A stretch of DNA of 64,000 bases. Origin: a virus. Positions within the stretch are counted from its first letter, which is position 1, and each line of letters begins with the position of its first letter. The position numbers and the translations under genes were made by a program. Positions 9,232-36,676 of the stretch are shown piece after piece. The stretch is taken from positions 25,020-89,019 of the IMG/VR virus record IMGVR_UViG_3300032323_000739; one strand, written 5' to 3'. The notes under the pieces are model-generated. The model had not been told where the DNA came from. It did not search any database and worked only from the letters and a program-made list of their open reading frames with translations.

Positions 9232-10124
9232 AAATAAGAATAGCAGAACAAGATATCATTTATCTCAGTTACGATGAACCCAATGCTGAGAAGAATTATG
9301 CAGATTTATTACACAAAGTACCTTGGGCTAAACGTGTACATGGAGTTAAAGGCAGCGATGCCGCACACAAAGCCTGTGCCGCATTAAGCGACACAGAATA
9401 TTTTGTCACAGTTGACGGTGACAATGTTATTGATTCTGAATTTATTAACGTAGAAATCGATTTAGATGAATTAGGGCTTGATGAAAGTTATGTATTCAGT
9501 TGGTGCGGTAAAGTTAACGTTAACGGATTAATGTATGGCAACGGCGGCCTTAAGTTATGGACTCGTAAATTTGTTAACAACATGCGTACACATGAAAATT
9601 CTGACCCTGCTGATACTAAAGGTCTAGTAGAATTTTGTTTTGATGACAAATATTATCAATTCAATACTAATTATTCTACTAGCGTTATTAATGGCAGTGC
9701 TTTCCAAGCCTTCCGTGCAGGATTTCGAGAAGGCGTAAAGATGAGTTTAAATCAAGGAGCCAAAGTTAGTAACATTAAAGACGTGTGGTGGCAAAATTAT
9801 CAACGTCTTTTAATCTGGTCTACGGTTGGCAGTGATGTGGAATATGGAGATTGGGCTATATATGGTGCTCGAGAAGGTTGCTACTTGACTAATTGTACAG
9901 ACTGGGACTATGCCAATGTTCGTGATTTTGAATACCTTACAGAACAGTGGAAAGAAAAATACAGTAAAATTACTGAGGAAATGTTACCATATGAAATTAC
10001 AGGACTTGGTGTAACACTAAAAGAAGAATTAGGTTTAGAAATAGCAGACCTAGATAAACATGGCAGTAAATTTTTTAGAACAGTATATCAAAATACTCCA
10101 AGAATAATTGGAAGAAAACTATGA
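9228..10124 (+). CDS. Glycosyltransferase-like protein (GT-A, DxD)
   Basis: SYDEPNAE...AKRVHGVKG..AAH...FVTVDGDN; paralog of 20699..21394. Confidence 0.55.
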   Translation: MKIRIAEQDIIYLSYDEPNAEKNYADLLHKVPWAKRVHGVKGSDAAHKACAALSDTEYFVTVDGDNVIDSEFINVEIDLDELGLDESYVFSWCGKVNVNGLMYGNGGLKLWTRKFVNNMRTHENSDPADTKGLVEFCFDDKYYQFNTNYSTSVINGSAFQAFRAGFREGVKMSLNQGAKVSNIKDVWWQNYQRLLIWSTVGSDVEYGDWAIYGAREGCYLTNCTDWDYANVRDFEYLTEQWKEKYSKITEEMLPYEITGLGVTLKEELGLEIADLDKHGSKFFRTVYQNTPRIIGRKL

Positions 10125-11536
10125 TCACTAGCAAGTTAGAATATTGGCCTAAGATTAAAGATCAACTAGATCAAGTAGGACCTGGATTTTGTTTGGCAAA
10201 ATGGAATCAAGTAACAATTCATCTAGCCACAGGTCATACACATAGTTGTCATCATCCTAACACACATAAGATTCCTCTGCAAGAAATTGCCGCGGACCCT
10301 AGTGCATTACATAATACTCTATTCAAGAAACAACAACGCCAACGTATGTTAGACGGTGAACGTCCAGAAGAATGTAGTTATTGCTGGAATGTTGAGGATA
10401 ATGTTAAAGAAGCACATATATTCAGTGACCGTGTACAAAAAAGTGCAGAATCTTGGAGTCAGAATTTTGAAGAAGTGCTGGCTGCTGGCGCAGAAAATTT
10501 TAATCCTACCTATGTTGAAGTTAGTTTTAGTAATGTTTGCAATTTTAAATGTTCGTATTGTTCACCAGAAGTATCTAGCAAATGGATGGAGGAGATAGAA
10601 CAATATGGGGCTTATCCAACTAGCAACAAATTTAATAATATCGAATGGTTAAAAAGCATTGACAAAATGCCTATACCTAACAAAGACTATAATCCTTATG
10701 TTAATGCGTTTTGGCACTGGTGGCCCGAGTTATATAAGACTCTAAAAGTGTTCCGTATTACTGGCGGCGAACCTTTATTAAGCAAAGATACGTTTAAAGT
10801 TTTAGATCATATCATAGAAAACCCTCGTCCTGAACTTGAACTAATGATTAACAGTAATCTCTGCATACCGGATGAATTGTTTAATAAGTTTGTAGAAAAG
10901 ATGAAACGTATTCAAGGCGAAGGCATGATCAAAGACTTTACCTTGTTTACTAGTTGCGAAGCACACGGCGAGCGAGCAGAATATATTCGCAACGGTTTAA
11001 ATTATAACAAATGGTTAGATAATTGTTATACGTACTTGGACAAAGTACCAAATGGTCGTTTAGGTATAATGAGCACCTATAATATTTTAAGTGTTACAAG
11101 TTACATGCCATTTATGAAAGACTTGTTAACACTAAACAAAACCTTTAATCATTATAAGGATAGAGTACATCCATTAATTTTTGATATTCCATACTTACGT
11201 TATCCAGAACATCTTAGTATGACTATCCTTACACCTGATTATCTTAAACAAGTCGAAGAACAAGTAACGTTTATGTATCAGAACCGTCAAACAGCAGATT
11301 GGCAACCTCTTGCTGGCAACGGTTTTTATGATTGGGAATGTAAAAAGTTAGAACGTGTTTATCATTTGCTAGAAAGCACTTTCAAAGTTGGCGAGCATCT
11401 ACAACCAAGCACTGTAAATAAACGCAAAGATTTTGTACGTTTTGTTGACGAGCATGACCGTCGTCGTGGTACAAATTTCTTACAAACCTTTCCAGAAATG
11501 GAAGAGTTCTACAACCTATGCAAGTCTTTAACATGA
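10121..11536 (+). CDS. Radical SAM protein with N-terminal Cys-rich twitch-like domain
   Basis: CNFKCSYC; ITGGEP; N-terminal FCLAKW...HSCHH...CSYC. Confidence 0.9.
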   Translation: MITSKLEYWPKIKDQLDQVGPGFCLAKWNQVTIHLATGHTHSCHHPNTHKIPLQEIAADPSALHNTLFKKQQRQRMLDGERPEECSYCWNVEDNVKEAHIFSDRVQKSAESWSQNFEEVLAAGAENFNPTYVEVSFSNVCNFKCSYCSPEVSSKWMEEIEQYGAYPTSNKFNNIEWLKSIDKMPIPNKDYNPYVNAFWHWWPELYKTLKVFRITGGEPLLSKDTFKVLDHIIENPRPELELMINSNLCIPDELFNKFVEKMKRIQGEGMIKDFTLFTSCEAHGERAEYIRNGLNYNKWLDNCYTYLDKVPNGRLGIMSTYNILSVTSYMPFMKDLLTLNKTFNHYKDRVHPLIFDIPYLRYPEHLSMTILTPDYLKQVEEQVTFMYQNRQTADWQPLAGNGFYDWECKKLERVYHLLESTFKVGEHLQPSTVNKRKDFVRFVDEHDRRRGTNFLQTFPEMEEFYNLCKSLT

Positions 11537-11964
11537 AATATATTAGTCATAGAGGAAATTTAAAAGGTCCTGAACCTGAATTAGAAAATGAGCCAGGGTA
11601 CATTCAGGACGCTTTAGATGCTGGATTTGATGTAGAAGTTGATGTTTGGTATGTAGATGAAAAATTTATGCTAGGGCATGACGCACCTATATATGATGTA
11701 ACCAAAAACTTTTTATTAGATAGTAGACTTTGGTGTCATGCTAAAACTCCCGAAGCATTAACAGCCATGTTAACAGCCGGAATTCATTGCTTTTGGCATG
11801 AAAATGATGAAAGAACTTTAACTAGTCAGGGATTTATATGGACATATCCACACAAAAAATTAGTTGATCGTTCAGTAGTTGTAATTTTAGACAAGGAATT
11901 AAATCATGAGTATGTCTCACGAGCAGTTGCAGTCTGCGGTGACTACGTTCAATCCTGGCGCTAA
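11533..11964 (+). CDS. Short PLC-like/GDPD-family phosphodiesterase
   Basis: ISHRGN...EN...GFDVEVDVW...LGHD...WCHAK. Confidence 0.7.
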   Translation: MKYISHRGNLKGPEPELENEPGYIQDALDAGFDVEVDVWYVDEKFMLGHDAPIYDVTKNFLLDSRLWCHAKTPEALTAMLTAGIHCFWHENDERTLTSQGFIWTYPHKKLVDRSVVVILDKELNHEYVSRAVAVCGDYVQSWR

Positions 11965-12715
11965 TAAAATTGCTATCTGTTTTAGTGGACAAATTCGCAC
12001 ATGGCGTCGATGCATAGACACATGGATTCATCTTTTAGAACATAATGGTTCTAGAGATAACATAGATGTTTTTTGTCATTTTTGGGATTTTAATACGGTA
12101 CCAAACTCTGTGCCAGATCATCCTAAAGTATCTGCCAAGGTGGATACTGAAGAAATAAAAGAACTAATAGACATTTTAAAACCTAAAAAATATATAATTG
12201 ATTTTGCGCGAGAGTTCCCACTGTTTGATAAAAATCAAGCAATTACACACGGACCGTTTGTTAGTCAATTTTACGGAATCATGAAAGCGGCAAATTTAAA
12301 ACGTCAGTATGAGATTGAAAATCGCATGATGTATAAAGGTGTAGTACGTGCAAGGTATGACGCATACTATACTCACAATGTAACTGAGTTTTATAAAAAT
12401 ATTGCTCCTAATACTATGCACGGGTTTCATATGGGATGGAATCCTGATAACTTTAGAGGGCGTATGGGAGATATTTTTTGGATTGCAGACAGTGACACTT
12501 ATGATCTTATAGCAGACTACTATATCAATCTAGGCTACATGAATAAGAAATGGTTCACTGCTGATCAAACAGATGCCACTCCGGAATGGGTATTTTTTCA
12601 TTACATTAAAAAGAATAATATCGATATACAAAATAATCATTGGGATATTAAACTAATGAGAGAAAACGCAGAACTTAGTTTTGCCAAGAAGGAGGGCGGC
12701 TTTGAAGTCTGGTAA
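11906..12715 (+). CDS. Putative glycan-modifying protein (glycosyltransferase-like)
   Basis: KIAICFSGQIRT...DVFCHFW...VVRARYD, a pattern typical of polysaccharide loci; paralog of the next gene. Confidence 0.5.
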   Translation: MSMSHEQLQSAVTTFNPGANKIAICFSGQIRTWRRCIDTWIHLLEHNGSRDNIDVFCHFWDFNTVPNSVPDHPKVSAKVDTEEIKELIDILKPKKYIIDFAREFPLFDKNQAITHGPFVSQFYGIMKAANLKRQYEIENRMMYKGVVRARYDAYYTHNVTEFYKNIAPNTMHGFHMGWNPDNFRGRMGDIFWIADSDTYDLIADYYINLGYMNKKWFTADQTDATPEWVFFHYIKKNNIDIQNNHWDIKLMRENAELSFAKKEGGFEVW

Positions 12716-13436
12716 GATTGCTATCTGTATTAGCGGAATGCTACGAACAGGAATTCAAGCGTATCCTGTGTTTCGTAATTTTTTTGATTCTCTTGGCGAG
12801 TATGATATTTTTTATCATACCTGGAAGTTAGACTCATCAATATCTAATTTGTTAAAAACAACTTACAAACCTACAAGATTTTTAGAAGAAGATCCGCTTA
12901 ATAATACTAAAGAAAGTTCGTTTGGTAGTATGTTATACAGTATAATGATGGCCAATGAACTTAAAAAACAATATGAGATTGAAAATAATTTCAGATATGA
13001 TCTTGTAATTAAAACAAGGTTTGATCTTGTTTTTCCTAAGACTATTAAATTTCCTGTTGATGAAAATATATGGCCTAGAACAATTTATAGTGTAAACGGA
13101 AATTGTGGTATAAATCATACTGATTATGAAAATCACGGTATTAGTGATGTAATATTTTGGGGAGATAGCCAAAGTATGGACCTGGCAACTAATATTTACA
13201 GGCATTATAAGTACACTACCTTAGTTAAAGACATGTATTTGAGGGACGGCTGGAAAATGGATGTAAAAGATTACTATCTAAGTCCAGGTACTATGATTTA
13301 TCAACGCACAGTTAAACAAAATATAGCACATGTTAGATTGCCGTCTATTGGAGAAGTTCCGTGGAGGGACGATGTTGCTGAGTTAGATCCAGTTAAAGAT
13401 TACGATAAAATAAGAGAGAGATATGCAAAAGGTTAA
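12702..13436 (+). CDS. Putative glycan-modifying protein (glycosyltransferase-like)
   Basis: KIAICISGMLRT...DIFYHTW...YDLVIKTRFD; TTG start at 12702 chosen from the GGAGG SD. Confidence 0.5.
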   Translation: MKSGKIAICISGMLRTGIQAYPVFRNFFDSLGEYDIFYHTWKLDSSISNLLKTTYKPTRFLEEDPLNNTKESSFGSMLYSIMMANELKKQYEIENNFRYDLVIKTRFDLVFPKTIKFPVDENIWPRTIYSVNGNCGINHTDYENHGISDVIFWGDSQSMDLATNIYRHYKYTTLVKDMYLRDGWKMDVKDYYLSPGTMIYQRTVKQNIAHVRLPSIGEVPWRDDVAELDPVKDYDKIRERYAKG

Positions 13437-14241
13437 GACATTATTAGTAGATGGCGATAGTTGGACATACGGCAGTGAAATACGCGATCCCAAGTTGCCA
13501 GAAGAAGTAAAAGATTGGGACCCACCGAATGATGAATATCGATTACCGCGTATTTGGCCAACAAAGTTGGGAGAAATGTTAGGTGCTGACGAAGTGTTTA
13601 ACATCAGTTATCCTGCATCTAGCAATGATGGAATAGTGCGAAGAACAGTAGGATGGATTACTCAAGAATATCTAAGCAAAGGTCGCGATACTAGCGATCT
13701 ATTTGTAGTCATAGGATTTACTAGTCCAGAACGAAAAGATTTTTATTATCGTGACATTGACGACAAATATAAACACTTTTGGTACACACTTTGGCCAATG
13801 TGGAAACATCGTTATCCACAAGAGGAATTAAACAGATTTGCCGACATTTATGCTTCTTATATGTGGAACCCTGAAGAGTATACACATAGATATCTAAATC
13901 AAGTATTCTATTTGCAAACATTGTTTAATCATTACGGCATAAAACATTTATTTTTCCAAGCCTTTTATCAGCGTAATGATATGCATATACGTCAGTGGAC
14001 AGATGATCCATATAACAAACACTACAACGGACAACCAGATCAAATGGTTTGGGACATGATTGATCCTACACGATTTATGCATAAGGATGACAAGATTCAT
14101 AGTTTTCATAACTATATTTTAGATAAAGATACCAGCGAAGGAAAACGAAATAGTATTCTTAACATGCATCCTAGTGAATTAGGACATACATGGTGGGCCG
14201 AACACATTTATGAATACGGCAAAGGAAAAAAATTATGGTAA
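13423..14241 (+). CDS. SGNH/GDSL-family hydrolase or acyltransferase
   Basis: VDGDSWTYG, SSN, C-terminal HPSELGH. Confidence 0.7.
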   Translation: MQKVKTLLVDGDSWTYGSEIRDPKLPEEVKDWDPPNDEYRLPRIWPTKLGEMLGADEVFNISYPASSNDGIVRRTVGWITQEYLSKGRDTSDLFVVIGFTSPERKDFYYRDIDDKYKHFWYTLWPMWKHRYPQEELNRFADIYASYMWNPEEYTHRYLNQVFYLQTLFNHYGIKHLFFQAFYQRNDMHIRQWTDDPYNKHYNGQPDQMVWDMIDPTRFMHKDDKIHSFHNYILDKDTSEGKRNSILNMHPSELGHTWWAEHIYEYGKGKKLW

Positions 14242-15008
14242 AAGAAATTGTAGTTTGCGGGGATAGTTTTGGCTGCGGTTCGGGCATCCCCTTAGAATCT
14301 TGTTTTGAAGCATCTTTTGGTGGACAAGTCGCAGATCATTTTAATGTTCCTTTGAATGTGTATGCTAGATCGGGGTGTTGTAATTATGTGATATATCTGC
14401 AAGTTAAACAAGTAATTGAGGATTATCGTGCTAAAGAAAAACCATTTGTGTTAATATCAACAACTAATCACAGTCGATTTACATTTCCTGTTGATACAAC
14501 TTTAGGATATGTTAACTATACATTGGCTGATGTTGACTACGATAGTTATACTCCTTATTCTGAACATACAGGCCCAGGTCGTAGACCCAAGCCTATAGAA
14601 AATTTTAATAAACCTAAATTAATTAGTGAAACTGTTAGTAACATTTTATATTTTTTAGAACAAAATCCTGGAAATTTAGCACCGTTGTTTTACAGTATTA
14701 AAAGAAAAATAAAAACTGTTGAGCTTTATTTTAGAGATTTGTACGATGACGAAATTAAACAAGTTAATGATACTGGTTTAATATTATTAATGCACAACGA
14801 ATTAAAAGAGGCCGGAATTCCGCATTTAATAATGACACCTAGTGAACACAGAGATCGTTTTATAGATAAAGAAAATTTCTTTTATAATAATTGGGGATAC
14901 TATAGTCAAAAATATCCAGACTTGTACGGTAGCGGACATTGCACTGAAGTCGGTCACATGGAAGTAGCCAAAAAAATAATTAAACGAATAGAAGGAACGA
15001 GTTTGTGA
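14235..15008 (+). CDS. SGNH/GDSL-family protein
   Basis: CGDSFG, GCCN, GHCTEVGH. Confidence 0.65.
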   Translation: MVKEIVVCGDSFGCGSGIPLESCFEASFGGQVADHFNVPLNVYARSGCCNYVIYLQVKQVIEDYRAKEKPFVLISTTNHSRFTFPVDTTLGYVNYTLADVDYDSYTPYSEHTGPGRRPKPIENFNKPKLISETVSNILYFLEQNPGNLAPLFYSIKRKIKTVELYFRDLYDDEIKQVNDTGLILLMHNELKEAGIPHLIMTPSEHRDRFIDKENFFYNNWGYYSQKYPDLYGSGHCTEVGHMEVAKKIIKRIEGTSL

Positions 15009-15691
15009 AATTAGTGTATGCTAACGGTGATAGTTGGACGCATGGTGACGAATTATCTGCGTTCGATGACATAGATCAAACTTCTGTTCGATATTATAAT
15101 TCTTGGCCGTGGAAATTATCTCAAATTTTAGACATTCCGGTATGTGTTAATGATGCACAAGGTGGCACAGGTAATTTACGTATTTTTCGTAGAACTAACG
15201 AATTTATATATAGATGGATTGGTTCAGGAAAATCTGTCAGTGATTTATTAGTAGTAGTAGGATGGTCTACGCCCGAGCGTACAGAAATTGGTGAAGGAAA
15301 AGGAATATATCCAATACAGATTCAGGGTCCTTTGTATTTTACAGATTTACCACGTGATGATGTTTCTTTAGAAAACTATCATAAAGCATATTACGAAATA
15401 TATTCAGACAGTTACGGAGAAAACTTAACAGCACTATATATGATGAATTTAAGAATGTTGTGCCAGGGATTAGGAATAAAATATTTTGATTTTGTTGCTA
15501 TAGGTAATCAACCTCAGCATTGGCAAGACTATATGAAATCAAAGTGGAATATAGAATTAACAAATATGTATATGAAAAGTACCTGGAGTGCTGAAGTTTA
15601 TAATAATAAATGGAGTAAACATAAGCACGGACATCCTACTAAAGAAACTCATGAACTATGGGCTAACATTTTAGCCAAGGAAATACAATGA
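15005..15691 (+). CDS. SGNH/GDSL-family protein
   Basis: NGDSWTHG, GTGN, GHPTKETH; GTG start. Confidence 0.65.
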   Translation: MKLVYANGDSWTHGDELSAFDDIDQTSVRYYNSWPWKLSQILDIPVCVNDAQGGTGNLRIFRRTNEFIYRWIGSGKSVSDLLVVVGWSTPERTEIGEGKGIYPIQIQGPLYFTDLPRDDVSLENYHKAYYEIYSDSYGENLTALYMMNLRMLCQGLGIKYFDFVAIGNQPQHWQDYMKSKWNIELTNMYMKSTWSAEVYNNKWSKHKHGHPTKETHELWANILAKEIQ

Positions 15692-16410
15692 ACATAATAA
15701 TTGGACTATGCGGCCAAGGAAACCGATTTAAACAAGTAGGTTACGAATTGCCTAAATATCTTATTACGTATCATGGAGCACCAATGATTTATCATAGTGT
15801 AGAAACTATAGGTATTAGAGGTAGAATACATTTTGTAGTAAGGAAAGAACATTTAGAACAATTTAATTTTTTAGAAAAAATGTTGTTAGGGTTAGGAGAC
15901 GAAATCATAACCATAAATGGTAACACACAAGGTGCCGCAGAAAGTTTATTATATACTAAGCCTTATATCAAAGATTTAAATGCTCCTATGCTTAGTGTAA
16001 ATGGTGACCAATTTATGGATTGGAAATCTTATCAATTTCAAGATGAAATACAACGGAATCCTGAAACAAGTTATATTGTAACTTACAACGAAACTAGCCC
16101 TAAATGCAGTTATGTTCGAGAGGATCAAGATCGTGTTGTTGAAGTAAGAGAGAAACAAGTTATTAGTAACGACGCAACTACGGGGTATTATCATTGGGCT
16201 CACACACATGATTTTTTTCAAGATGCTGAACAAATGATTAAAGAAGGACACAAAGAAAACGGAGAGTTTTATGTTGCTCCAGTTTATAATTATACTATTG
16301 CTAGAGGAAAAACAGTAAAAAAGTTTTCTATAAGTAATAAAGAGTTTTATCCAGTAGGCACTCCCGACGATTTAACAAAATTTCAAAGACTAAGCACAAG
16401 GTTTGATTAA
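15688..16410 (+). CDS. Sugar-phosphate nucleotidyltransferase (NTP_transferase family)
   Basis: GLCGQGNRF...LPKYL, TQGAAES, VNGDQ, EVREK, NGEFYVAP, VGTPDDL. Confidence 0.85.
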   Translation: MNIIIGLCGQGNRFKQVGYELPKYLITYHGAPMIYHSVETIGIRGRIHFVVRKEHLEQFNFLEKMLLGLGDEIITINGNTQGAAESLLYTKPYIKDLNAPMLSVNGDQFMDWKSYQFQDEIQRNPETSYIVTYNETSPKCSYVREDQDRVVEVREKQVISNDATTGYYHWAHTHDFFQDAEQMIKEGHKENGEFYVAPVYNYTIARGKTVKKFSISNKEFYPVGTPDDLTKFQRLSTRFD

Positions 16411-16745
16411 TGAAAAAAGCACACATTGATAACTTTATTAAAGGATGGTTCGTTGGAAATTTTGAACCTAGCCTACTTAAAGAAAATTTTGAAGTTGGTT
16501 TCCATCAGCACAAAGCAGGCGATTTTCATCAAGATCATTTTCATAAACACAGTACTGAAATTAACTTAGTAGTAGAGGGCAAAGTCAAAATAAACGGAGA
16601 AGTATTTAGGGCAGGTGACATCTTTGTTTTGGAGCCTTACGAAATTAGCCAATGCGAATATCTTACAGATGTTAAATTAGTTGTAGTACGGAATCTAAGC
16701 GACCCTAATGATAAGTTTGAAGTCCAAATAGTTGACAAAAAATAA
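16410..16745 (+). CDS. Small cupin protein (possible isomerase/epimerase)
   Basis: HQDHFHKHSTEINLVVEG...GDIFVLEP cupin motifs. Confidence 0.7.
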   Translation: MKKAHIDNFIKGWFVGNFEPSLLKENFEVGFHQHKAGDFHQDHFHKHSTEINLVVEGKVKINGEVFRAGDIFVLEPYEISQCEYLTDVKLVVVRNLSDPNDKFEVQIVDKK

Positions 16746-16760: not shown

Positions 16761-16776
16761 AACAGAAAGGAAAAGT

Positions 16777-18009
16777 ATGAAATTTTTTCGAGAACTAACT
16801 CAAACAGAAAAAGATCGTTGTGTTATTGCAACATATTATATTGAAACGTATTCTGACATAGGAGATTTACGCGATGCCGCTTGGAATCTTGCTATAGGTC
16901 AAAGTGTTGGAAATCCAAAAATACGAAATCAGTGGGAAACTGATGAATTGTTTGAAAGGTCATCCTGTGTGATTTATCACAATGAATCAGAATTAACAGG
17001 CAAGCATAGTGGCACAATTAAGATTGGATTTCCTAAAATAAACTCCGATTGGCAAGGGGATGGCATCAGTCATCTTATGTGTCAATTAATGGGCGGCCAG
17101 ATGGATATTAATGTGTTTAAAGCCTGCAGATTAAAACACATTGAGTTTCCTAAAGATGTCGAACAGCAATTTTTAGGACCTCGACAAGGTATTACGGGTA
17201 TTAGAAAATTTGTTAATCGCTATGACAAACCTCTGTCAGGAGCCATTGTAAAACCTAAAACTGGCATTAGTCCTGCTACTCTAGCAGACATGGTTAAAGA
17301 ATTAATAGACGGCGGTGTAGATTTTATCAAGGAAGACGAGATATTGTCTAACCCTAGTTTTTGTCGTTTAGAGGATCGTGTTGAATTAATTTCTAACATT
17401 GTTAATAATTGCGGTCGTGGAGTTATCTATTGCTTCTGTATTAATGGCGATCATCATACTATTCTTGACCGTGCTAAGTTTGTAGCCAACAATGGCGGTA
17501 ACGGTATTCACATTAATTTCTGGAGCGGTCTAGGAGTTTATAATTCAATACGCAGATTAGATTTTCCATTGTTTATTCATTACCAGAAGAGTGGTGATAA
17601 GATTCTTACAGACAAACGCAACCCGTTTGGTATTGATTGGTCAGTACTGTGTGACCTTGCTGGACTATGCGGTGTAGATACTATTCATGCGGGCATGTGG
17701 GGAGGCTATTTAAGTGACAACGAAGATGAACTTAAATACACCATGGAAACTCTGCATAAACGAAATGTTCTTCCTGCACTAAGTTGTGGCATGCATCCTG
17801 GGATTGTTAATCCAACAGCAGAAAAATTTGGTACTGATTTTCTTGCTAACTGCGGCGGCGCTATACACGGGCACCCAGACGGTACTCTAGCCGGAGCATT
17901 AGCCATGCGTCAGGCCATTGACAAAACTCCTGGAAAAGAGTTTTTGACAGCAATAGAAAAATGGGGCTATGTAGGCGGTTCCTTACCCGAGTGGGTATTA
18001 GATTTTTAA
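16777..18009 (+). CDS. RuBisCO-like protein (form IV, RLP)
   Basis: IVKPKTG, GVDFIKEDE, DTIHAG, LSCGMHPG, GGAIHGHPDG; lacks several carboxylase residues. Confidence 0.9.
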   Translation: MKFFRELTQTEKDRCVIATYYIETYSDIGDLRDAAWNLAIGQSVGNPKIRNQWETDELFERSSCVIYHNESELTGKHSGTIKIGFPKINSDWQGDGISHLMCQLMGGQMDINVFKACRLKHIEFPKDVEQQFLGPRQGITGIRKFVNRYDKPLSGAIVKPKTGISPATLADMVKELIDGGVDFIKEDEILSNPSFCRLEDRVELISNIVNNCGRGVIYCFCINGDHHTILDRAKFVANNGGNGIHINFWSGLGVYNSIRRLDFPLFIHYQKSGDKILTDKRNPFGIDWSVLCDLAGLCGVDTIHAGMWGGYLSDNEDELKYTMETLHKRNVLPALSCGMHPGIVNPTAEKFGTDFLANCGGAIHGHPDGTLAGALAMRQAIDKTPGKEFLTAIEKWGYVGGSLPEWVLDF

Positions 18010-18010
18010 T

Positions 18011-18970
18011 ATGGATATAATTGAACTAAAAGGCGGTAGTTTAAATTCAACTTGTTTATATGTTGACGGTGATCGCAAATTTGTAAGAAAAACTATTTCG
18101 ACTACTGCCGATAGAGAATACGGCTATGTACGTTGGTACAGTCAATTAAAAAAATTACAAAGATTTAATCAGATAATTCCCCAGCACGTTCCTCGAGTTC
18201 TGGATGCTGGTGTGTGTGATAAAGGTGCATATTTTGACATTGAATATATTGATGCTAAAGATATTAAAACACTGTTTAAAGAAAATTTACTAGATGCCCA
18301 CCAGACTGAAAAAATGCATCAACAGTTGTGGCAAGCGTTTGATACTTTACATCAACACACTTATCAACCAAACATTAGTAGTTTAAAACTTTATTTTCAG
18401 GAAGAAGTTTTACAAAAAATTAATGATGCTAGACAGTTTTCAGAGTTTGAAAACTTTTATCAAATGGATGTCTATGTACATTGGGGAGAAACATTTAGTG
18501 GTATTAAACATAAATTAGAACAATTATCTAAGTTGTTTGATCAAGTTATAACTACAGAAAGTTACGTACACGGAAATCCAACGCTAGAAAATATTCTTTA
18601 CAGCGAAGAAACAGGTATAGTGTTTATTGACTTATATGAAGAAGGTATTGTAGACAGCAAGTTTATGGACTATAGTCAGATACTACAATGTAGTAGCAGT
18701 TACTACGGTATTCTTAATGACAGTGTGATACGTGTAAAAGGAAACGTTACAGGATTCGACACTAAGTTTCCAAAAAATTTATTGTACTTCGATAAACTGT
18801 TTAATGAAGAATTAGAGCGTAGATTTACAAATCAGGAATATTTGTTGATAAGATTATTTGAAGCCACACAGTTTTTTCGTATGTTGCCGTTTAAATGTCA
18901 CGCTGGAAACATAGAAGCGGCAAAGTTTTTTTATGCTCATGCTTGCGCTCTCGTAAATAAACTATTATGA
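18011..18970 (+). CDS. APH/choline-kinase-like phosphotransferase
   Basis: LKGGSL, VRK, HGNPTLENIL, VFIDL. Confidence 0.65.
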   Translation: MDIIELKGGSLNSTCLYVDGDRKFVRKTISTTADREYGYVRWYSQLKKLQRFNQIIPQHVPRVLDAGVCDKGAYFDIEYIDAKDIKTLFKENLLDAHQTEKMHQQLWQAFDTLHQHTYQPNISSLKLYFQEEVLQKINDARQFSEFENFYQMDVYVHWGETFSGIKHKLEQLSKLFDQVITTESYVHGNPTLENILYSEETGIVFIDLYEEGIVDSKFMDYSQILQCSSSYYGILNDSVIRVKGNVTGFDTKFPKNLLYFDKLFNEELERRFTNQEYLLIRLFEATQFFRMLPFKCHAGNIEAAKFFYAHACALVNKLL

Positions 18971-20028
18971 CATGGCGTGTAAAGACTACCCTTCCTGTAG
19001 AGTTTGATATAGTCAAAGTACCTAATGCATTGGATTGGGACATAATTCCCGGTCAGCGTAGAATAGCCGTGGTTGATGAAACAGTCTATGCTTTGTACAA
19101 AGACAAAATTCCCGCTGGCACAGAGATTTTTACAGTACGCAGTACAGAATCTGAAAAAGATTGGAAAAACGCCGAACGTGTTTTACAGTTTTTTCAAGAT
19201 ATAAAATTACTACGGAGAGAAACGGTTATTGCTGTAGGCGGTGGAGTTCTTTTAGACTTAGTAGGATTTTGTTGCAGTATATATCGTAGAGGTGTTCCTT
19301 ATGTTAGAATACCAACTACACTATTGGCTATTGTTGATGCTAGTGTAGGTGCAAAAACAAGCATTAATCATTTTGGGTTTAGAAATAGAATTGGTAGTTT
19401 TTATCCACCGACATTGACATTAATTGATAAGTCTTTTATTAAAACACAAGATCACAGAGAAATATCAAACGGCATGGCAGAAATTTTAAAGTTAGCCATA
19501 GTTCTTGATTATCAATTATTTGAATTAATTGAACTTAATCCGCAGGAATTACTAAGACTTAAATTTCAAAATTATGTGTTAGCAGATAAAATAATTGATC
19601 GTGCAATTTCGGGTATGACTGAAGAACTGAATGATAATCTTTGGGAACGAGACTTACAGCGTCCTGTAGATTTTGGACATACATTTAGTCCTATGGTTGA
19701 AATGAAAAATGTTCCTAATTTGTTACATGGTGAAGCAGTAATGTTAGATTGTCTTTTAAGTGCTTGTATTAGTAATTTAAGAGGATATATCAGCAACGAT
19801 CATTTACACCGTATTTTTAAAACTGTTCGCAGTTGTGACTTGCCTACAGAACACAAAGATTTTTATAATGTTGACCTGCTGTGGGCAGGTTTACAAGATG
19901 TAATGAACCATCGCAATGGTAATCAATATATACCTGTTCCTATAAGTATTGGCCGTTGCGAAATTATCAATGACGTAACACGCAGTGAAATAGAACAGGC
20001 CTGCGACCGAATGAGAAGTATGCAATGA
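18967..20028 (+). CDS. Sedoheptulose-7-phosphate cyclase, 2-epi-5-epi-valiolone synthase (EEVS) type
   Basis: DHQS-family GGGVLLD and PTTLLAIVDASVGAKT; EEVS fingerprint MTEEL.DNLWE..L.RPVDFGHTFSP, LLHGEAV, NHRNG. Confidence 0.85.
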   Translation: MTWRVKTTLPVEFDIVKVPNALDWDIIPGQRRIAVVDETVYALYKDKIPAGTEIFTVRSTESEKDWKNAERVLQFFQDIKLLRRETVIAVGGGVLLDLVGFCCSIYRRGVPYVRIPTTLLAIVDASVGAKTSINHFGFRNRIGSFYPPTLTLIDKSFIKTQDHREISNGMAEILKLAIVLDYQLFELIELNPQELLRLKFQNYVLADKIIDRAISGMTEELNDNLWERDLQRPVDFGHTFSPMVEMKNVPNLLHGEAVMLDCLLSACISNLRGYISNDHLHRIFKTVRSCDLPTEHKDFYNVDLLWAGLQDVMNHRNGNQYIPVPISIGRCEIINDVTRSEIEQACDRMRSMQ

Positions 20029-20699
20029 AAACAGTATTAATTACAGGTTCTAGTCGAGGGCTAGGTAAAGCACTGACAGAAACATTTTTACAAAATGGAT
20101 GGAAAGTTGTTGGAGTTAGTAGAACAGATTTAAAGAGTTATGACAACTATACACACATAGTTGCTGATGTGGCTAATATTGGCCAAGTCCATACTGCATT
20201 TGATCTACTTAAAAAAACTAAAACTAAAATTGATGTGTTAATAAACAATACGGCTGCTTTTCATATGGGCGACTTTGCAGATTCAAAATATTTTGATATT
20301 GCGAATGTTATTGATACTAATGTAAAAGGCACAATGTATGTGACTAATCAAGCGTTAACAATAATGGAGCCAGGTTCAAAAGTTGTTTTTGTTAACAGTG
20401 TAGCAGGACTAAGAGAAATTCAACATCAGAGCATTTACTGTGCCAGCAAGGCTGCTTTAAAAAGTTTTGCCGGAGTGTTAGGCCAAGAACTTAGACAGAG
20501 GGGTATAAAAGTATCTAGTATACATCCAGGCGGCATTAACACAACCTTATGGAATGAAAATAATCCATATCCTTGCGGTGATGTTACTAACGCTTTAGAT
20601 CCACACCATCTTTCAGAAATGATCTATCGCATCTCGTCTGATACTAGTAATACTGAATACAAAACTATAACAATGTTTCCTGAAGTGGAGTGGCACTAA
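20025..20699 (+). CDS. Short-chain dehydrogenase/reductase
   Basis: TGSSRGLG, LINNTA, NS, YCASK, HPGGINT. Confidence 0.9.
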   Translation: MKTVLITGSSRGLGKALTETFLQNGWKVVGVSRTDLKSYDNYTHIVADVANIGQVHTAFDLLKKTKTKIDVLINNTAAFHMGDFADSKYFDIANVIDTNVKGTMYVTNQALTIMEPGSKVVFVNSVAGLREIQHQSIYCASKAALKSFAGVLGQELRQRGIKVSSIHPGGINTTLWNENNPYPCGDVTNALDPHHLSEMIYRISSDTSNTEYKTITMFPEVEWH

Positions 20700-21394
20700 T
20701 GTACGACATAGTGTTTATCAGTTACGGTGAGCCTAATGCAGAAGCCAATTGGGAACGATTAAAAAATAGATATCCCTTGGCTAAACGTGTTACCAATGTG
20801 GCAGGAATTCATCAAGCACATATTGCCGCGGCTAAAAAAGCCTTTACTAAAATGGTTTGGGTAGTGGATGGCGATGCAGAGGTATTACCTACATTTAATT
20901 TTGACTACGAAGTTAGCGAATGGGATTTAGATGTAGTACATGTATGGCGCAGTCGTAATCCTATAAATGATTTAGAATACGGGTACGGCGGAGTAAAACT
21001 ATTGCCACGTAAGTTAACGCTGGATATGGATATTTCTAAACCAGACATGACTACCAGTATTAGTACAAAATTTAAAGCAATGGCTGAAGTTAGTAATATT
21101 ACTGCTTTTAACACTGATCCGTTTAATACTTGGAAGAGTGCGTTTCGCGAGTGCGTTAAGTTAGCCAGTAAAGTTATAGATGGACAAGTTGACACTGAAA
21201 CTGAGCATAGGTTATTAGAGTGGTGTACCCCACACGTAGATAGATTGCACGGTAACTGGGCGTTTCTTGGCGCAGAGGATGGCAAAATGTACGGCATGCA
21301 AAAGGCCGGAGATTTAAAAGCACTAGGTAAAATAAATGATTTTGAATGGCTACGACAATTCTTTTCAAGATATCCCGTTCCACCAAATAGTTAA
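20699..21394 (+). CDS. Glycosyltransferase-like protein (GT-A, DxD)
   Basis: SYGEPNAE...WVVDGDA...YGYGGVKL...AFRECVKL; paralog of 9228..10124. Confidence 0.55.
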   Translation: MYDIVFISYGEPNAEANWERLKNRYPLAKRVTNVAGIHQAHIAAAKKAFTKMVWVVDGDAEVLPTFNFDYEVSEWDLDVVHVWRSRNPINDLEYGYGGVKLLPRKLTLDMDISKPDMTTSISTKFKAMAEVSNITAFNTDPFNTWKSAFRECVKLASKVIDGQVDTETEHRLLEWCTPHVDRLHGNWAFLGAEDGKMYGMQKAGDLKALGKINDFEWLRQFFSRYPVPPNS

Positions 21395-22334
21395 ATTTGG
21401 TCAACGCACTATGCTTGAACGACCTTTGTTCAACGTAAGTTGGATACTAGGTCGTTTTTGTAATTATAATTGTAGTTACTGCTGGCCCTATGCTAGAAGT
21501 GATAAATTGGATCATCTAGATTATGAAACTTATACAAACACCGTTGACGAAATAAAACGTCAGGCACGTGAACAAGGCTTCACTGATTTTCATTGGAGTT
21601 TTAGTGGCGGCGAACCTACAGCATATAAACGATTATTAGATTTAGTTAAACATTTAGACGATGGAGTAAAATCTCCTTATCAAAGTATCCACATGACTAC
21701 TAATCTTAGTCCAGGAAGTAAGTGGTGGGGCACCTGGTGTAAAAATACTGAGATGCTACAACGCAGAAGTTTAACAGCCAGTTTCCATACAGAATTTGCA
21801 CGTGAACAAGAATTTGGAGACAAATGTCTACAATTAAATTACGAAGGTGTTCATGTAACAGTAAATCAGGTAATGGTTCCAGAATTGTTCTGGGACACCT
21901 ATGCACGATGCGAACGTCTATACAAACGAGGTATAAATGTAACACTAAAACCTCAAAGCGATCCTACGGCTAGTTTTGTAGTCAGTGGTTACGATGACAA
22001 AATGTTAGAGGTTATGCAAACAGGATTTCCGCAATTATCGAGTGGCGAGCAGTTGTATCAGGTAGCATTATTTGACGAGTTAGGGCACGAATATTTGTTT
22101 GATCAAGCCGAAAGATTTAACGCATTTGGTTTTAACAAATTTCAAAATTGGACTTGCAATGCTGGCTATCAAAGTGTTATAATAAGAAGCAACGAAGTTA
22201 AACGTAGTTATAGTTGTCACGATGAATCATTAGGAACTTTGATAAGCGGATTTAAATTATTTGACAGTCCTAAAAAATGTATAACTCCAACTTGTGTTAG
22301 TTCGGCAGATAGTAAAATACCAAAAATAAAATGA
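21336..22334 (+). CDS. Radical SAM protein with C-terminal Cys cluster
   Basis: CNYNCSYC, SGGEPT, WTCNAG...C...C....C. Confidence 0.9.
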   Translation: MILNGYDNSFQDIPFHQIVKFGQRTMLERPLFNVSWILGRFCNYNCSYCWPYARSDKLDHLDYETYTNTVDEIKRQAREQGFTDFHWSFSGGEPTAYKRLLDLVKHLDDGVKSPYQSIHMTTNLSPGSKWWGTWCKNTEMLQRRSLTASFHTEFAREQEFGDKCLQLNYEGVHVTVNQVMVPELFWDTYARCERLYKRGINVTLKPQSDPTASFVVSGYDDKMLEVMQTGFPQLSSGEQLYQVALFDELGHEYLFDQAERFNAFGFNKFQNWTCNAGYQSVIIRSNEVKRSYSCHDESLGTLISGFKLFDSPKKCITPTCVSSADSKIPKIK

Positions 22335-23002
22335 AAAGATTAATAGCGTTCGGAGATTCCATGACCTATGGTGTAGGATTAGAAGATTGCTGGCCGGATA
22401 CCGAGAAACCTAGTAAGCACTGTTGGCCCGAAATAATTGCGTCGACACTTGGAAGAAAATGCATTAACAAATCAGTGCCAGGGTCTAGTAACAAACGAAT
22501 ATGGTATTCTATATCTAAGTTTAAATTCCGTTCAGACGATTTGGTATTAATTTTATGGACATATCCTGATAGAACTGCGGTTATTCGAACTCCCTTTAAT
22601 ATAACAAATTTATTGCCTAGTCAAGTAGGCAATAGTTATGGAGAAGTAGAAATAATGGCACGTAGTTATTATGAAAATCTTCATGCTTTCTATGATTCTG
22701 ATGTCGCAAGCAAACTTTATATAAGAGATGCTACTAGAAAAATAAAAGATCTGGGACTAGAGTTTTATCAGATGATTGCTGAGCCTCGAGATAAGTTTTT
22801 ATTTGAAAATATAGAACATATTTCGCTATTCATGAGTAACTATGAAAGAAATTATAATAAAGCCCTAGACGACAATCATGCCGGACCCGACGGTCACAAA
22901 GCATTTGCTCGAGATTTTTTAAAATATATAAATGTTGATACAGATTTAGTTGCTCCTAAACCTTTAAGTTTTTTTGAAAAGATTAAAAAAAGATGCAGAT
23001 AG
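22331..23002 (+). CDS. SGNH/GDSL-family protein
   Basis: FGDSMTYG, GSSN, DDNHAGPDGH. Confidence 0.7.
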   Translation: MKRLIAFGDSMTYGVGLEDCWPDTEKPSKHCWPEIIASTLGRKCINKSVPGSSNKRIWYSISKFKFRSDDLVLILWTYPDRTAVIRTPFNITNLLPSQVGNSYGEVEIMARSYYENLHAFYDSDVASKLYIRDATRKIKDLGLEFYQMIAEPRDKFLFENIEHISLFMSNYERNYNKALDDNHAGPDGHKAFARDFLKYINVDTDLVAPKPLSFFEKIKKRCR

Positions 23003-23583
23003 ATACAGAACATTTACACCACTGGATGAGAGCAATTCGATCTAGCAAAGATCCTATACGTACCATGGATGCTTTTTGGAGAGGCCAAATTCTTAGTAAA
23101 GAATGGTTAATAGACAATATTAAACCGTTTGTCAATCAAGAAGTGTCTATAGACATACATGGCGGGTGGGTAGGAGTGTTATCTAGTATGTTGTTTCAAT
23201 CTGGCTTATCTATTAAACATATTCGTAGTATCGACATAGATCCAGACTGCAAGGATATAGCATCTAATATGAATCAGATAGAACTAGAACAAGGAAGATT
23301 TAGAGCTGTCACAGCAGATATGTGTACTATTCGCAGTGATGCAGATATTATAATTAATACTAGTTGTGAACACATTACACAAGATCAATACGACACTTGG
23401 TCAATAGGACATCCTAACAACAGTCTATTGGTATTACAGAGCAACAACTACAGCATTCCTGAACACGTTAGGCCTGCTCAAGATTTAGAAGAATTTAAAT
23501 CTCAATGTGATGTAAATGTATTATGGGCAGGAGAATTAGAACTACCCCTGTACAAGCGATTTATGATTATAGGAACTAGATGA
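22993..23583 (+). CDS. Class I SAM-dependent methyltransferase-like protein
   Basis: DIHGGWVG, SIDIDP, TADM, INTSCEH. Confidence 0.65.
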   Translation: MQIDTEHLHHWMRAIRSSKDPIRTMDAFWRGQILSKEWLIDNIKPFVNQEVSIDIHGGWVGVLSSMLFQSGLSIKHIRSIDIDPDCKDIASNMNQIELEQGRFRAVTADMCTIRSDADIIINTSCEHITQDQYDTWSIGHPNNSLLVLQSNNYSIPEHVRPAQDLEEFKSQCDVNVLWAGELELPLYKRFMIIGTR

Positions 23584-24449
23584 TGAACAAACATTTTATT
23601 GAAATAGCACAATTTTACATGACTAATGTTTGTAATCTTACCTGTAATAATTGCTGTACTTTCAATAATAGAAGATTTTCGGGACACTATAAATTTAACG
23701 ATTATCGAGATCATTATATTGAGTGGTCAAAAAAAGTTGATTTAGATTTTATGAGTATCCTAGGTGGAGAACCGTATGCTAATCCAGATTTACCAAATTG
23801 GATAGATGGTCTCAGATCCTGCTGGCCAGATAACAAAAATTTTAGTATTTGTACAAACGGATCTTATCTCTCTACCTTCAAAGAATTGTCAAGAGATGCA
23901 ATAAAAAAGGGATTATGGTTAGAAATAAATGTTCACGATCCTAATCAATATGATGATATTAAAAACAATTTGTTAGAAATTATCAGTGTCTTTAATTATG
24001 AAGAAAAAGTTATACCTGATAAATTTCATGTAGATCATCTTGAATACTATGCTGACGGTATAAAAATAGCTCAAATAGTCAAATATTATAATTTTTTTAA
24101 TTCAGCAACTACAGAGATTAAAAATAGAGTAACGTATTTTCATAATAGTAATCCAGAAATTGCTCACAGTGCTTGTTCAGCATTTGATTGTCATTATTTT
24201 GTAAGAGGCGAACTTTATAAATGTTTTTTAACAGCAGTGGGAAGAGATTTAAATCAGCAATTTTTGATAGAGGATCGTGCTAAAACTCTTCTAGAAAACT
24301 ATCAGGCCTGCTCACCGTGGTCTTCGGACGAACAAATTAAACAATTTATGAACAATATTAAAACCCCAATATCTCAATGTAGTCTTTGTCCAGAAAAATT
24401 AAATTTACAGCCTATATGGCCTTTAGAAAAGACCAAAATTAAATTGTAG
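23580..24449 (+). CDS. Radical SAM protein
   Basis: CNLTCNNC, LGGEP, TNG, C-terminal Cys residues. Confidence 0.85.
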   Translation: MMNKHFIEIAQFYMTNVCNLTCNNCCTFNNRRFSGHYKFNDYRDHYIEWSKKVDLDFMSILGGEPYANPDLPNWIDGLRSCWPDNKNFSICTNGSYLSTFKELSRDAIKKGLWLEINVHDPNQYDDIKNNLLEIISVFNYEEKVIPDKFHVDHLEYYADGIKIAQIVKYYNFFNSATTEIKNRVTYFHNSNPEIAHSACSAFDCHYFVRGELYKCFLTAVGRDLNQQFLIEDRAKTLLENYQACSPWSSDEQIKQFMNNIKTPISQCSLCPEKLNLQPIWPLEKTKIKL

Positions 24450-24509: not shown

Positions 24510-25433
24510 ATGAAAATTTTAATGACCGGAACCAGTGGATTTATCGGATCACATCTTAAACCACTGATTGAAAAAAATCATACTTTTTACTCTCTTAAAA
24601 GCGATTTGTTAGATTTTGAAGCAGTAACCAAAGAAGTATTAGATTTTAAACCAGATGTCATAGTACACCTTGGTGCTCGTACAGAAGTTGAAAAAAGTTT
24701 TTATGAGCAAATAACATTTAGTCAAATTAATTATGTTGGTAGCGTCAACTTAATCGAAGCGGCTAGCAAAGTAGAGAATTTTAAAAATTTTGTTTTTGCC
24801 AGTACCATGGAAGTGTATGGCTGGCAACCTATTAGCGACGAAATTAAAGATAACGGTCAACCTTTAAATCATGTTGCGTTTGATGAAAATACCGAACCTC
24901 ACCCTAATGCTCCCTATGCTGTAGCCAAATACGGTGTAGAAAAATATCTTGAATATATGCATCGTAGTTGCGGCTTTCCTTTTAGTGCCATTCGTCAGAC
25001 TAATAGTTATGGTCGTAAAGATAATGATTTCTTTGTTGTAGAACAAATTATTACACAGATGTTAAAAAATCCTAATGAGGTAAATTTTGGTTATGCCGAG
25101 CCTTTTCGCAATTTTATTTTTATTGATGATTTACTTGCCGCTTGGATGACATTAATAGAAGATCCTAACATCGGTAAAACAGGAAAAATTTTTACAGTAG
25201 GACCAGACAATCCTATCAAGATAAAAGATCTAGCCAGCATTATTGCTAAGAAACTAAACTGGAACGGTGCAATTAACTGGAATAAAAAACCTAAGCGTCA
25301 GGGAGAAATTTACTGGTTAAACAGCAACCATAATCTTTTAACTAAACACACTGGGTGGACTCCTAAGGTTAGTTTAAATGACGGCATTGATCGAACTATA
25401 GAAATTTGGAGAAACATTTTACATGTTAAATGA
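24510..25433 (+). CDS. NAD-dependent NDP-sugar epimerase/dehydratase
   Basis: TGTSGFIG, HLGA, ASTMEVYG, PYAVAK, R..N.YG, RNFIFIDD. Confidence 0.9.
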   Translation: MKILMTGTSGFIGSHLKPLIEKNHTFYSLKSDLLDFEAVTKEVLDFKPDVIVHLGARTEVEKSFYEQITFSQINYVGSVNLIEAASKVENFKNFVFASTMEVYGWQPISDEIKDNGQPLNHVAFDENTEPHPNAPYAVAKYGVEKYLEYMHRSCGFPFSAIRQTNSYGRKDNDFFVVEQIITQMLKNPNEVNFGYAEPFRNFIFIDDLLAAWMTLIEDPNIGKTGKIFTVGPDNPIKIKDLASIIAKKLNWNGAINWNKKPKRQGEIYWLNSNHNLLTKHTGWTPKVSLNDGIDRTIEIWRNILHVK

Positions 25434-35590: not shown

Positions 35591-36676
35591 ATGTTTAAAT
35601 TTGACGAACTTCAAACCATTCATTTAGAAATAACCAATAACTGTCAAGCCAGTTGCCCTATGTGTGCTAGAAACTATCACGGCGGTCAGCCCAATCCATT
35701 GTTAAAAATTAATAATTGGACACTAAAAGATTTCCAAGATATTTTTACAGACGAAGTGATCGCACAAGTTAAAGGCATCTACTTTTGTGGAAACTTTGGA
35801 GATCCGTTATTAAACAACGATTTTTTAGACATGATAAAATGGATAGTACCAAAAAGTCCTAATCTTGTTATTAATGTACATACCAACGGTGGTGCTCGTA
35901 AAACTGAATGGTGGGAAGAATTAGCTCGTAGCCTACCACAGAATCACATGATAAATTTTGGCATCGATGGATTGGAGGATACACATCATTTATATCGAGT
36001 CGGAACAACCTATGAAAATGTTATACGTAATGCTAAAGCATTTATAGATGCAGGCGGTCGTGCTGAGTGGGTTTTCTTAAAATTTAAACATAACGAACAT
36101 CAGGAAGAAGAAGCGCGTCGACGTGCTAAAGATTTAGGCTTTGAAATTTTTACATTAAAAAATTCCAGTAGATTTTTAGGAGAACCTAGATATAGAGTTA
36201 TTGACAAGGAAGGTAATATTACACATTATATTGAACCTCCTAATGATAACAAGATGCATTTTATTAGCAAAGAAATGATAGATAACTATCGAGAAACTAT
36301 CATGCCTCTTGAAATTAGTTGTAAGGTACAACGTGATAGAGAAATTTATATAGATGCTTTTAAGATGGTCATGCCCTGCTGTTGGTTAGCCAGCGCACCT
36401 TATACACAATATGATTATGATAATGTTAATGCGCATATACGATCTGAAATTAAACGACAGTATCACGACTTAGTTGATGCATTAGGCGGACCACAAGCAT
36501 TAGATGCTGTTAACGTTGGTATAAAAGCAGTTATAGATTCTAAACCATGGCAGACAGTGTGGGAAGAATATTGGACAAATAAGAAAATGATCATGTGTGC
36601 TCGTATATGTGGTCAAACACCTACGATTTCAAAACCAACAGATCAATTTTTAGAAAGAAAGAAATTAAACTCTTAA
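35591..36676 (+). CDS. Radical SAM protein with C-terminal SPASM/twitch-like Cys motifs
   Basis: CQASCPMC, CGNFGDP, TNGG, IDG, PCCW, C...C. Confidence 0.9.
   Translation: MFKFDELQTIHLEITNNCQASCPMCARNYHGGQPNPLLKINNWTLKDFQDIFTDEVIAQVKGIYFCGNFGDPLLNNDFLDMIKWIVPKSPNLVINVHTNGGARKTEWWEELARSLPQNHMINFGIDGLEDTHHLYRVGTTYENVIRNAKAFIDAGGRAEWVFLKFKHNEHQEEEARRRAKDLGFEIFTLKNSSRFLGEPRYRVIDKEGNITHYIEPPNDNKMHFISKEMIDNYRETIMPLEISCKVQRDREIYIDAFKMVMPCCWLASAPYTQYDYDNVNAHIRSEIKRQYHDLVDALGGPQALDAVNVGIKAVIDSKPWQTVWEEYWTNKKMIMCARICGQTPTISKPTDQFLERKKLNS

Follow-up and report, generated by a model that had tools for sequence, protein, structure and literature searches.

A nucleotidyltransferase-linked RuBisCO-like protein in a T4-related phage and its proposed role in nucleotide-sugar biosynthesis

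Introduction

What reaction a virus obtains from a relative of RuBisCO is the question raised by a gene at positions 16777 to 18009 (plus strand) of the window, the whole 64,000-nucleotide stretch of viral DNA analysed here (bases 25020-89019 of an 89-kb IMG/VR viral record with a CheckV completeness of 24%). To our knowledge, RuBisCO relatives of known function all fix CO2 or serve salvage or catabolism. The gene product, a RuBisCO-like protein (RLP) of 410 amino acids, belongs to an "IV-like" clade linked to a nucleotidyltransferase (NT), in which the metal/carbamate core is kept and the carboxylation residues are lost.

Genes for baseplate hub and wedge proteins, for a late sigma factor of the T4 type and for thymidylate synthase are present in the record, as are a 4,472-aa ORF and genes for an exonuclease, a QueE-like enzyme and a MoxR-type ATPase with 51% identity to its homologue in jumbo phage PA5oct; tail-fibre/collar proteins are encoded at the window start. 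Based on the late sigma factor, baseplate, tail and other phage genes, the source is a large T4-related myovirus. No match to cultured phages was found by blastn with the tail-fibre region. The sequencing runs with at least a 0.24 share of the words of the stretch were freshwater metagenomes, and none of the runs listed was an RNA run containing it. At least six radical-SAM genes were also observed within the window.

The RLP gene and its active site

The frame is free of stops over its 410 codons, and a Shine-Dalgarno sequence AAAGGA (AAGGA core; 16766..16771, plus strand) lies 5 nt 5' of the ATG. Homologues are 410-412 aa long and cover 100% of the window RLP. Given the Shine-Dalgarno spacing and the lengths and end-to-end coverage of the homologues, this ATG is taken as the start, and not the upstream TTG at 16732 given by the ORF finder. 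The catalytic TIM-barrel domain was clearly recognized (PF00016, Pfam RuBisCO_large; 149 bits against a cut-off of 30.1, 2.2e-43). The N-terminal domain (PF02788, residues 8-127) scored 19.2 bits against a cut-off of 20.7, and the protein aligns over its full length to the form III RuBisCO 2cwx. Pairwise dN/dS values against phage homologues ranged from 0.03 to 0.09. The ORF is thus confirmed as real, intact and under strong purifying constraint.

Active-site residues were mapped in spinach numbering by a HMMER alignment to 2cwx and by a MAFFT alignment of 214 sequences, and the two maps agree. K175, K177, K201, D203, E204, H327, S379, G381, G403 and G404 are all retained, exactly as had been read by eye in the preliminary description, whereas E60G, T65N, W66P, N123G, T173I, H294Q, R295K, H298D, K334Y and G380C are substitutions. 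The changes first noticed around E60, at H294/R295 (to Q/K) and at K334 (to Y) were recovered as well; the reading of N123 as Gln has to be corrected, since this position aligns to a Gly (G107 of the RLP) and the Gln is the next residue (Q108), which is invariant in the clade. Four members of the catalytic set of bona fide RuBisCOs (E60, N123, K175, K177, K201, D203, E204, H294 and K334) are therefore replaced, and these four replacements (E60G, N123G, H294Q and K334Y) are invariant across the clade. In RuBisCO, K334 positions CO2, H294 hydrates and cleaves the adduct, and E60, N123, T65 and W66 close the site. The carbamylation lysine and the metal ligands (K201, D203 and E204) are present in both alignments and the carboxylase residues are absent, the combination by which an RLP is recognized; the core for Mg/carbamate enolisation chemistry is kept, as had been supposed. 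The alignment also shows that the cradle for the P1 phosphate, with its glycines G381, G403 and G404, is retained together with the carbamate/Mg site, and that the P1 loop contains a Cys, at position 380, which is invariant in the clade.

The remodelled site is nearly uniform among relatives. The clade signature reads G60 N65 P66 G123 Q124 ... Q294 K/R295 ... Y334 ... C380, and the window RLP has its modal form. Over 21 sites the signature was essentially identical in 72 of 78 viral sequences, and all 25 cellular sequences and most representatives matched it fully or almost fully, even at identities as low as 35%; only one variant was common, in which K295/D298 become R295/I298. Moreover, 51 positions were at least 97% invariant among 123 clade members. 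The near-invariant signature, these invariant positions and the low dN/dS indicate a working enzyme with a single conserved job.

Clade placement and earlier reports

Profile searches scored the RLP far below the thresholds of all NCBIfam models, including those of RuBisCO (NCBIfam type III, 206 against a cut-off of 497; NCBIfam form II, 114 against 489; PRK04208, 192 against 438), of the methionine-salvage enolase MtnW (NF007095, 159 against 409; TIGR03332, 124 against 514) and of OiaX, a 3-oxo-isoapionate-4-phosphate decarboxylase (152 against 700). Judged by profile score, the RLP is outside every characterised RLP equivalog. Among solved structures, form III RuBisCOs match the sequence best (2cwx, 4.9e-43), with various RLPs next, and the form III match is what could be said for a RuBP carboxylase serving the phage as an auxiliary CO2-fixation gene. 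The four clade-invariant replacements, the type III score and the occurrence of the RLP in heterotrophs such as SAR11 and Legionella speak against it. With the carboxylation residues lost and the RuBisCO models so far from their cut-offs, this reading is rejected as having practically no chance of being correct, and the preliminary description was right to deny the gene a part in CO2 fixation.

Exhaustive HMMER searching of 1.84 billion representatives returned about 25 full-length clusters at 35-56% identity, followed by generic RuBisCO/RLP matches near 30%. In a FastTree phylogeny of 148 sequences, built from 50%-identity representatives whose labels derive from the residue signature and, for the sister group, from PDB look-ups, all proteins bearing Q294/Y334/G60 fell on one side of a branch with an SH-like support of 99, so that by this tree the NT-linked RLP clade is monophyletic. 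Phylogeny had been named at the outset as a check, and it returned a separate clade. The nearest sequences outside the clade (P0165, P0197 and others) are uncharacterised, and among solved structures they too are closest to form III enzymes. Relatives of the RLP are encoded on at least 254 viral contigs, and 2,903 homologous protein clusters were counted when RLPs and RuBisCOs of all forms are included. When the RLP was compared by tblastn with 50,697 records of cultured phages, a set that may lack entries close to this genome, no match was found, and a literature search for a functional assignment of the clade gave nothing relevant.

Comparison with characterised systems is informative in both directions. 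Form III RuBisCOs (Pyrococcus horikoshii 2cwx and T. kodakarensis 1geh) are the best solved sequence matches and share the full-length, two-domain large subunit; unlike them, the window RLP is without the carboxylation residues, and its gene has neither AMP phosphorylase nor R15P isomerase as a linked partner. MtnW/YkrW, the 2,3-diketo-5-methylthiopentyl-1-phosphate enolase, shares its fold and its carbamate/Mg enolisation with the RLP (PDB 2oek at 3e-33), but both of its models are missed by a wide margin. The catalytic Lys of YkrW enzymes sits at position 123, which is Gly in the window RLP. The DeepYkrW RLP of R. rubrum and R. palustris, a 5-methylthioribulose-1-phosphate isomerase, is non-carboxylating, acts together with a small cupin and relocates the carbonyl of a ketose-1-phosphate through enolisation. 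It belongs to another clade with another active-site signature, and it is a catabolic/salvage enzyme with no link to an NT or glycosyltransferases, whereas the window RLP has both. The OiaX/OiaC enzymes of D-apiose catabolism are likewise RLPs acting on a keto sugar-acid phosphate, but they carry out decarboxylase/transcarboxylase chemistry in catabolic operons, and the OiaX model scores the window RLP far under its cut-off.

New groups of RuBisCO homologues were reported from ocean metagenomes by Yooseph et al. 2007. About 90 phage "Form IV-like" RLPs of unknown function were later described together with Beckwithbacteria sequences (Jaffe, Castelle, Dupont & Banfield 2019, Mol Biol Evol, PMC6389311); they were found on IMG/VR phage contigs, some from myoviruses and phages of more than 200 kb. 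Their origin in IMG/VR phages, myovirus context, divergent key residues and position outside the classical form IV clades all resemble those of the NT-linked clade, which, by this description, is probably the same group. The cassette with an NT, a cupin and a glycerophosphodiester phosphodiesterase (GDPD)-like protein, the fusions, and the spread to SAR11, Legionella and DPANN are not described in PMC6389311. The earlier suggestion of a new functional subgroup is fair as regards function, but the clade itself has very probably been reported already.

The nucleotidyltransferase partner and the glycan island

The most constant feature of the RLP loci is a gene overlooked in the preliminary description. 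An NT of 240 aa (15688..16410, plus strand), resembling sugar-1-phosphate NTs (Pfam NTP_transferase, 8.5e-8), sits two genes upstream of the RLP, with only a cupin gene between them; its best PDB match is 4evw, an uncharacterised NDP-sugar pyrophosphorylase (4e-17), followed by GDP-mannose pyrophosphorylase. Among the 80 viral loci that were fetched, out of the viral contigs with an RLP relative, 78 contain the NT. It is next to the RLP in 36 of 39 cellular loci, the remaining three being contig ends. This adjacency was found in a complete Pelagibacter chromosome (SAR11), three Legionella species, Azospirillum oleiclasticum, Turneriella, Verrucomicrobia, Elusimicrobia and several DPANN archaea.

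The two proteins may also form one chain. P0123 (667 aa) is an RLP-NT fusion, and at least 28 such clusters at 90% identity (658-672 aa; NT part 65-100% identical) were collected from ENA, JGI and Logan. Leaving RLP fusions aside, the fused NT domain is closest, at 51-55% identity, to fusions of a beta-phosphoglucomutase-like HAD protein with an NT.

The usual viral gene order is NT, 111-aa cupin, RLP and 148-aa GDPD-like protein. The cupin (16410..16745, plus strand), found in 67 of the 80 viral loci, is a single-domain protein of the small metal type with H43, H45 and E50 invariant (alignment A1), and its profile weakly matches the metal cupins quercetinase, the 113-aa mannose-6-P isomerase 7zvm and KdgF. 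The GDPD-like gene is present in 64 of the 80, usually directly 3' of the RLP; here it has moved upstream (11518..11964, plus strand). Its product keeps the HRG, EN, ExD and GHD motifs of glycerophosphodiester phosphodiesterases (H11, R12, E23, N24, E40, D42 and H54 in alignment A2) and matches the GDPD 7e0v at 1.7e-5, and its AF2 model (pLDDT 95) is a shortened barrel whose best Foldseek matches are GDPDs with a TM of 0.5-0.6, suggesting a miniature phosphodiesterase. Both genes are missing from many cellular loci, implying that their role is not obligatory.

Around this core, the loci are glycan-building islands. The commonest accessory family (40 of 80 viral loci) is represented here by two paralogous genes at 11906-12715 and 12681-13436 (plus strand), whose products resemble GT-A-fold glycosyltransferases (AF2 pLDDT 77; Foldseek matches to GT6/GT8/glycogenin-type transferases at 1e-5) and carry the Atlas annotation DUF7796 / capsular polysaccharide protein. 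An NAD-dependent epimerase/dehydratase (24510..25433, plus strand; Pfam Epimerase, 1.9e-37) belongs to another frequent family, present in 34 of the 80. Accessories at other loci include GT2, GT6, GT11, GT25, GT61 and WavE-like proteins, FkbM-type and other methyltransferases, a DegT aminotransferase and NAD-dependent epimerases. This setting agrees with the biosynthetic character first attributed to the RLP.

The same cannot be said of a link to cyclitol phosphates, which had been proposed along with it. According to that proposal, the RLP would enolise or epimerise 2-epi-5-epi-valiolone phosphate or intermediates derived from sedoheptulose-7-phosphate on the way to an NDP-cyclitol. Directly 3' of the RLP in the window, and with the NT upstream, lie genes for an APH/fructosamine-kinase-like kinase, a DHQS-family sugar-phosphate cyclase (EEVS-like) and an SDR (18011..20699, plus strand; Pfam assignments), and NDP-cyclitols and keto-cyclitol-phosphate epimerases do exist in the validamycin/acarbose pathways. 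However, this module lies outside the conserved core, accompanying the RLP in only 7 of 80 viral and 0 of 39 cellular loci, and the RLPs of those seven loci share the active-site signature of the others, the sole diagnostic difference being the conservative K136R. The cyclitol proposal thus rests on a variable neighbour, and it was rejected as decidedly improbable.

A role in salvage was weighed against the same neighbourhoods. Here an RLP of the MtnW or R. rubrum type would clear methylthioribulose-1-P or 5-deoxyribulose-1-P, by-products of the many radical-SAM enzymes of the island; the abundance of such genes in the window and the partnership of a cupin with the RLP of the R. rubrum / R. 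palustris MTA shunt are compatible with this. Linkage to the RLP is not conserved for the radical-SAM genes, though, the MtnW scores are too low, and no mtn-type family (mtnA, mtnK or mtnB) was matched among the scanned RLP neighbours. Salvage also leaves the universal NT partner and the fusion unexplained, and it was rejected as extremely improbable.

A sister cassette without the RLP

When the cupin was used for scanning, at least 512 viral contigs were found, and 36 of the 80 loci fetched were without an RLP. Their gene order is HAD phosphatase, 223-aa protein, 385-aa NT, cupin and GDPD, beside T4 gp59 and gp32. An RpiB/LacAB sugar-phosphate isomerase domain (9e-34) forms the C-terminal part of the 385-aa NT, the HAD protein is KdsC/YrbI-like (2.5e-17 to 2p9j/KdsC), and the 223-aa protein is weakly ribokinase/PfkB-like, under the Pfam cut-off. 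A heptose-pathway reading of this cassette was considered and weakened, as the phosphatase is KdsC-like and not GmhB-like. The RLP-free cassette is present in the cultured cyanophages SynMITS9220M01 and Bellamy. In S-CAM9 and its relatives, the C-terminal half of a 461-aa protein annotated as a pyrophosphorylase corresponds to this NT, and an annotated HAD hydrolase is encoded two genes downstream; metagenomic NTs of the same 461-aa length start with a HAD-like motif.

The HAD phosphatase, the PfkB-like protein and the RpiB-NT occur in 0 of 163 RLP-positive loci versus 28-31 of the 36 RLP-negative loci. The RLP and this front end of isomerase, kinase-like protein and phosphatase are mutually exclusive and never co-occur. 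The NTs of the two kinds of cassette share only 28-31% identity; the sugars that they lead to may thus differ, and any replacement may concern the pathway and not the step. The HAD-NT fusions and the isomerase/kinase-like/phosphatase cassette suggest that the partner of this NT clade, whether fused or adjacent, is always an enzyme that prepares a sugar phosphate. The RLP-free sister cassette and its mutual exclusivity with the RLP, the quantitative exclusion of the cyclase link and the HAD-NT relatives are new in the present work.

Proposed function

The constant or fused NT, together with the mutual exclusivity just described, makes it most likely that the RLP supplies the sugar-phosphate substrate of the NT. 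On the evidence of gene context and residue patterns, we propose, with a probability of roughly 0.55, that the RLP prepares a sugar phosphate, the NT converts it to an unusual NDP-sugar, and the glycosyltransferases of the island use this NDP-sugar for a glycan. The RLP, Mg2+-dependent and with a carbamylated lysine, would enolise a phosphorylated keto-sugar, then reprotonate it and release an isomer (an epimer, a carbonyl-shifted sugar or a glycosyl-1-phosphate) with no CO2 added. Its product would pass to the NT, the small metal cupin and the miniature GDPD-like phosphodiesterase may tailor the resulting NDP-sugar, and the GT-A-type transferases of the same island would build or modify a glycan with it.

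We infer the position of the RLP upstream of the NT, the nature of its substrate and a reaction of enolisation plus reprotonation from these patterns. A ketose phosphate can reasonably be expected as the substrate from the retained residues, with its phosphate in the P1 site, next to the carbonyl. Every superfamily member known to us acts on an alpha-phosphoryloxy-ketone sugar, and by analogy the RLP substrate would be of this type. NTs of this superfamily normally need a glycosyl-1-phosphate (or a primary phosphate ester), and we know of no RLP reaction that gives a glycosyl-1-phosphate, which counts against an RLP feeding the NT.

This difficulty would disappear if the RLP turned a ketose-1-phosphate or ketose-1,omega-bisphosphate from central metabolism straight into a glycosyl-1-phosphate, with ribulose-1-P and sedoheptulose-1,7-bisphosphate as candidates, a variant that we regard as unlikely. 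It would run as the reverse of an R15P-isomerase-type 1,2-proton shift on a Mg2+-bound phosphoenolate, and, quite conjecturally, the invariant C380 beside P1 might be the acid/base. Ribose-1,5-bisphosphate isomerase and MtnA interconvert aldose-1-phosphate and ketose-1-phosphate via a cis-phosphoenolate with a Cys/Asp pair (PMC6423476); they have the IF-2B family fold, unrelated to that of the RLP, and would be functional analogues only, working in the reverse direction. If the variant is true, one enzyme replaces the isomerase, kinase and phosphatase of the usual NDP-sugar route, and the RuBisCO superfamily would thereby gain its first biosynthetic role and a type of reaction new to it.

The order of the two enzymes might also be reversed, the NT first activating a common sugar-1-phosphate and the RLP then enolising (epimerising or isomerising) a keto-NDP-sugar. 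The RLP-NT fusion and adjacency fit both orders. None of the residues that usually cap the P1 phosphate is kept, and the remodelled N-terminal loops (E60G, T65N, W66P and N123G) would open the P1 side for a nucleotide; the NAD-dependent epimerase/dehydratases of 34 loci could moreover make keto-NDP-sugars. That dehydratase family is, however, missing from over half of the loci, a nucleotide-linked substrate is not known for any RLP, and the enzymes that never occur together with the RLP (isomerase, kinase-like protein and phosphatase) act before the NT. The reversed order is therefore considered fairly unlikely.

Alternatively, the enediolate might attack an aldehyde or keto acid instead of CO2, and the resulting branched-chain or ulosonic-type sugar phosphate would then be dephosphorylated and nucleotide-activated. 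The preserved enolisation core is compatible with such C-C bond formation, as is the exchange of the CO2-specific K334 and of H294, the residue for hydration and cleavage, for invariant Y and Q; the KdsC-like phosphatase of the RLP-free cassette belongs to a family serving Kdo/Kdn pathways. The superfamily offers no precedent, and no gene that would form the second substrate is conserved in the cassette, so that we consider this chemistry improbable.

Implications

Supply of a sugar phosphate to the NT by the RLP, as the first step of a nucleotide-sugar pathway carried by the phage, is the reading that we favour; such a function would be new to the superfamily. Given its abundance, its frozen active site and its wiring or fusion to a nucleotide-sugar enzyme, the NT-linked clade represents a directly testable candidate for a biosynthetic RLP. 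The natural RLP-NT fusions, and the RLP-free cassette in the cultured cyanophages Bellamy and SynMITS9220M01, provide experimental handles. The finding points to a phage-encoded route to a surface sugar, which may shape host recognition in aquatic phage-host systems.

Related cassettes in phages and SAR11

A sister cassette without the RuBisCO-like protein (RLP) was found in 36 of the 80 cupin-seeded viral loci (L124-L203), which comprises a KdsC-like HAD protein, a weakly matched ribokinase-like protein, a fusion of the nucleotidyltransferase (NT) with an RpiB isomerase domain, a cupin and a mini-GDPD. This RLP-free version is also present in the cultured phages Bellamy (L205) and SynMITS9220M01, and in T4-like cyanophages it is adjoined by gp59/gp32. 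On the cellular side, single-cell genomes of a SAR11 subclade within Pelagibacteraceae (L095-L103) showed the gene order GDPD > NT > RLP > NT, with two NT paralogues, one on each side of the RLP, and the cupin was absent from these loci.

Genomic surroundings in the phage record

Three clustering paralogues were identified in the window (13423-14241, 15005-15691 and 22331-23002), two with a DUF6071 match and one with a weak GDSL lipase match; members of this family lie between the cassette genes in loci that carry the cyclase, and in no others. Radical-SAM genes, one of them QueE-like, were located at 10121-11536, 21336-22334, 23580-24449, 35591-36676, 51041-52249 and 61639-62499, an unusually high number for one phage region. 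A second long run of mostly unannotated, biosynthetic-looking genes occupies both strands at 27040-53567, among them those for a short DegT-like protein, an APS-kinase-like P-loop protein, an Asp/Asn beta-hydroxylase-like protein and a radical-SAM protein. Shortly before the window begins, the viral record holds one uninterrupted ORF of 4,472 aa (G000:C1:10753-24171), flanked by a baseplate wedge gene and tail-fibre/collar genes.

RuBisCO-family fusion proteins

The homologue search also revealed fusion proteins outside the window. In P0195 (583 aa), an N-terminal TIR domain is joined to an RLP of another kind than that of the window (profile matches: TIR_2, 3.3e-13, and both RuBisCO domains), which could be a defence-type architecture. 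In P0160 (726 aa) and P0172 (742 aa), a full RuBisCO large subunit is fused with an IF-2B family domain of the R15P/MTR-1-P isomerase type, and a single protein thus combines consecutive pathway steps.
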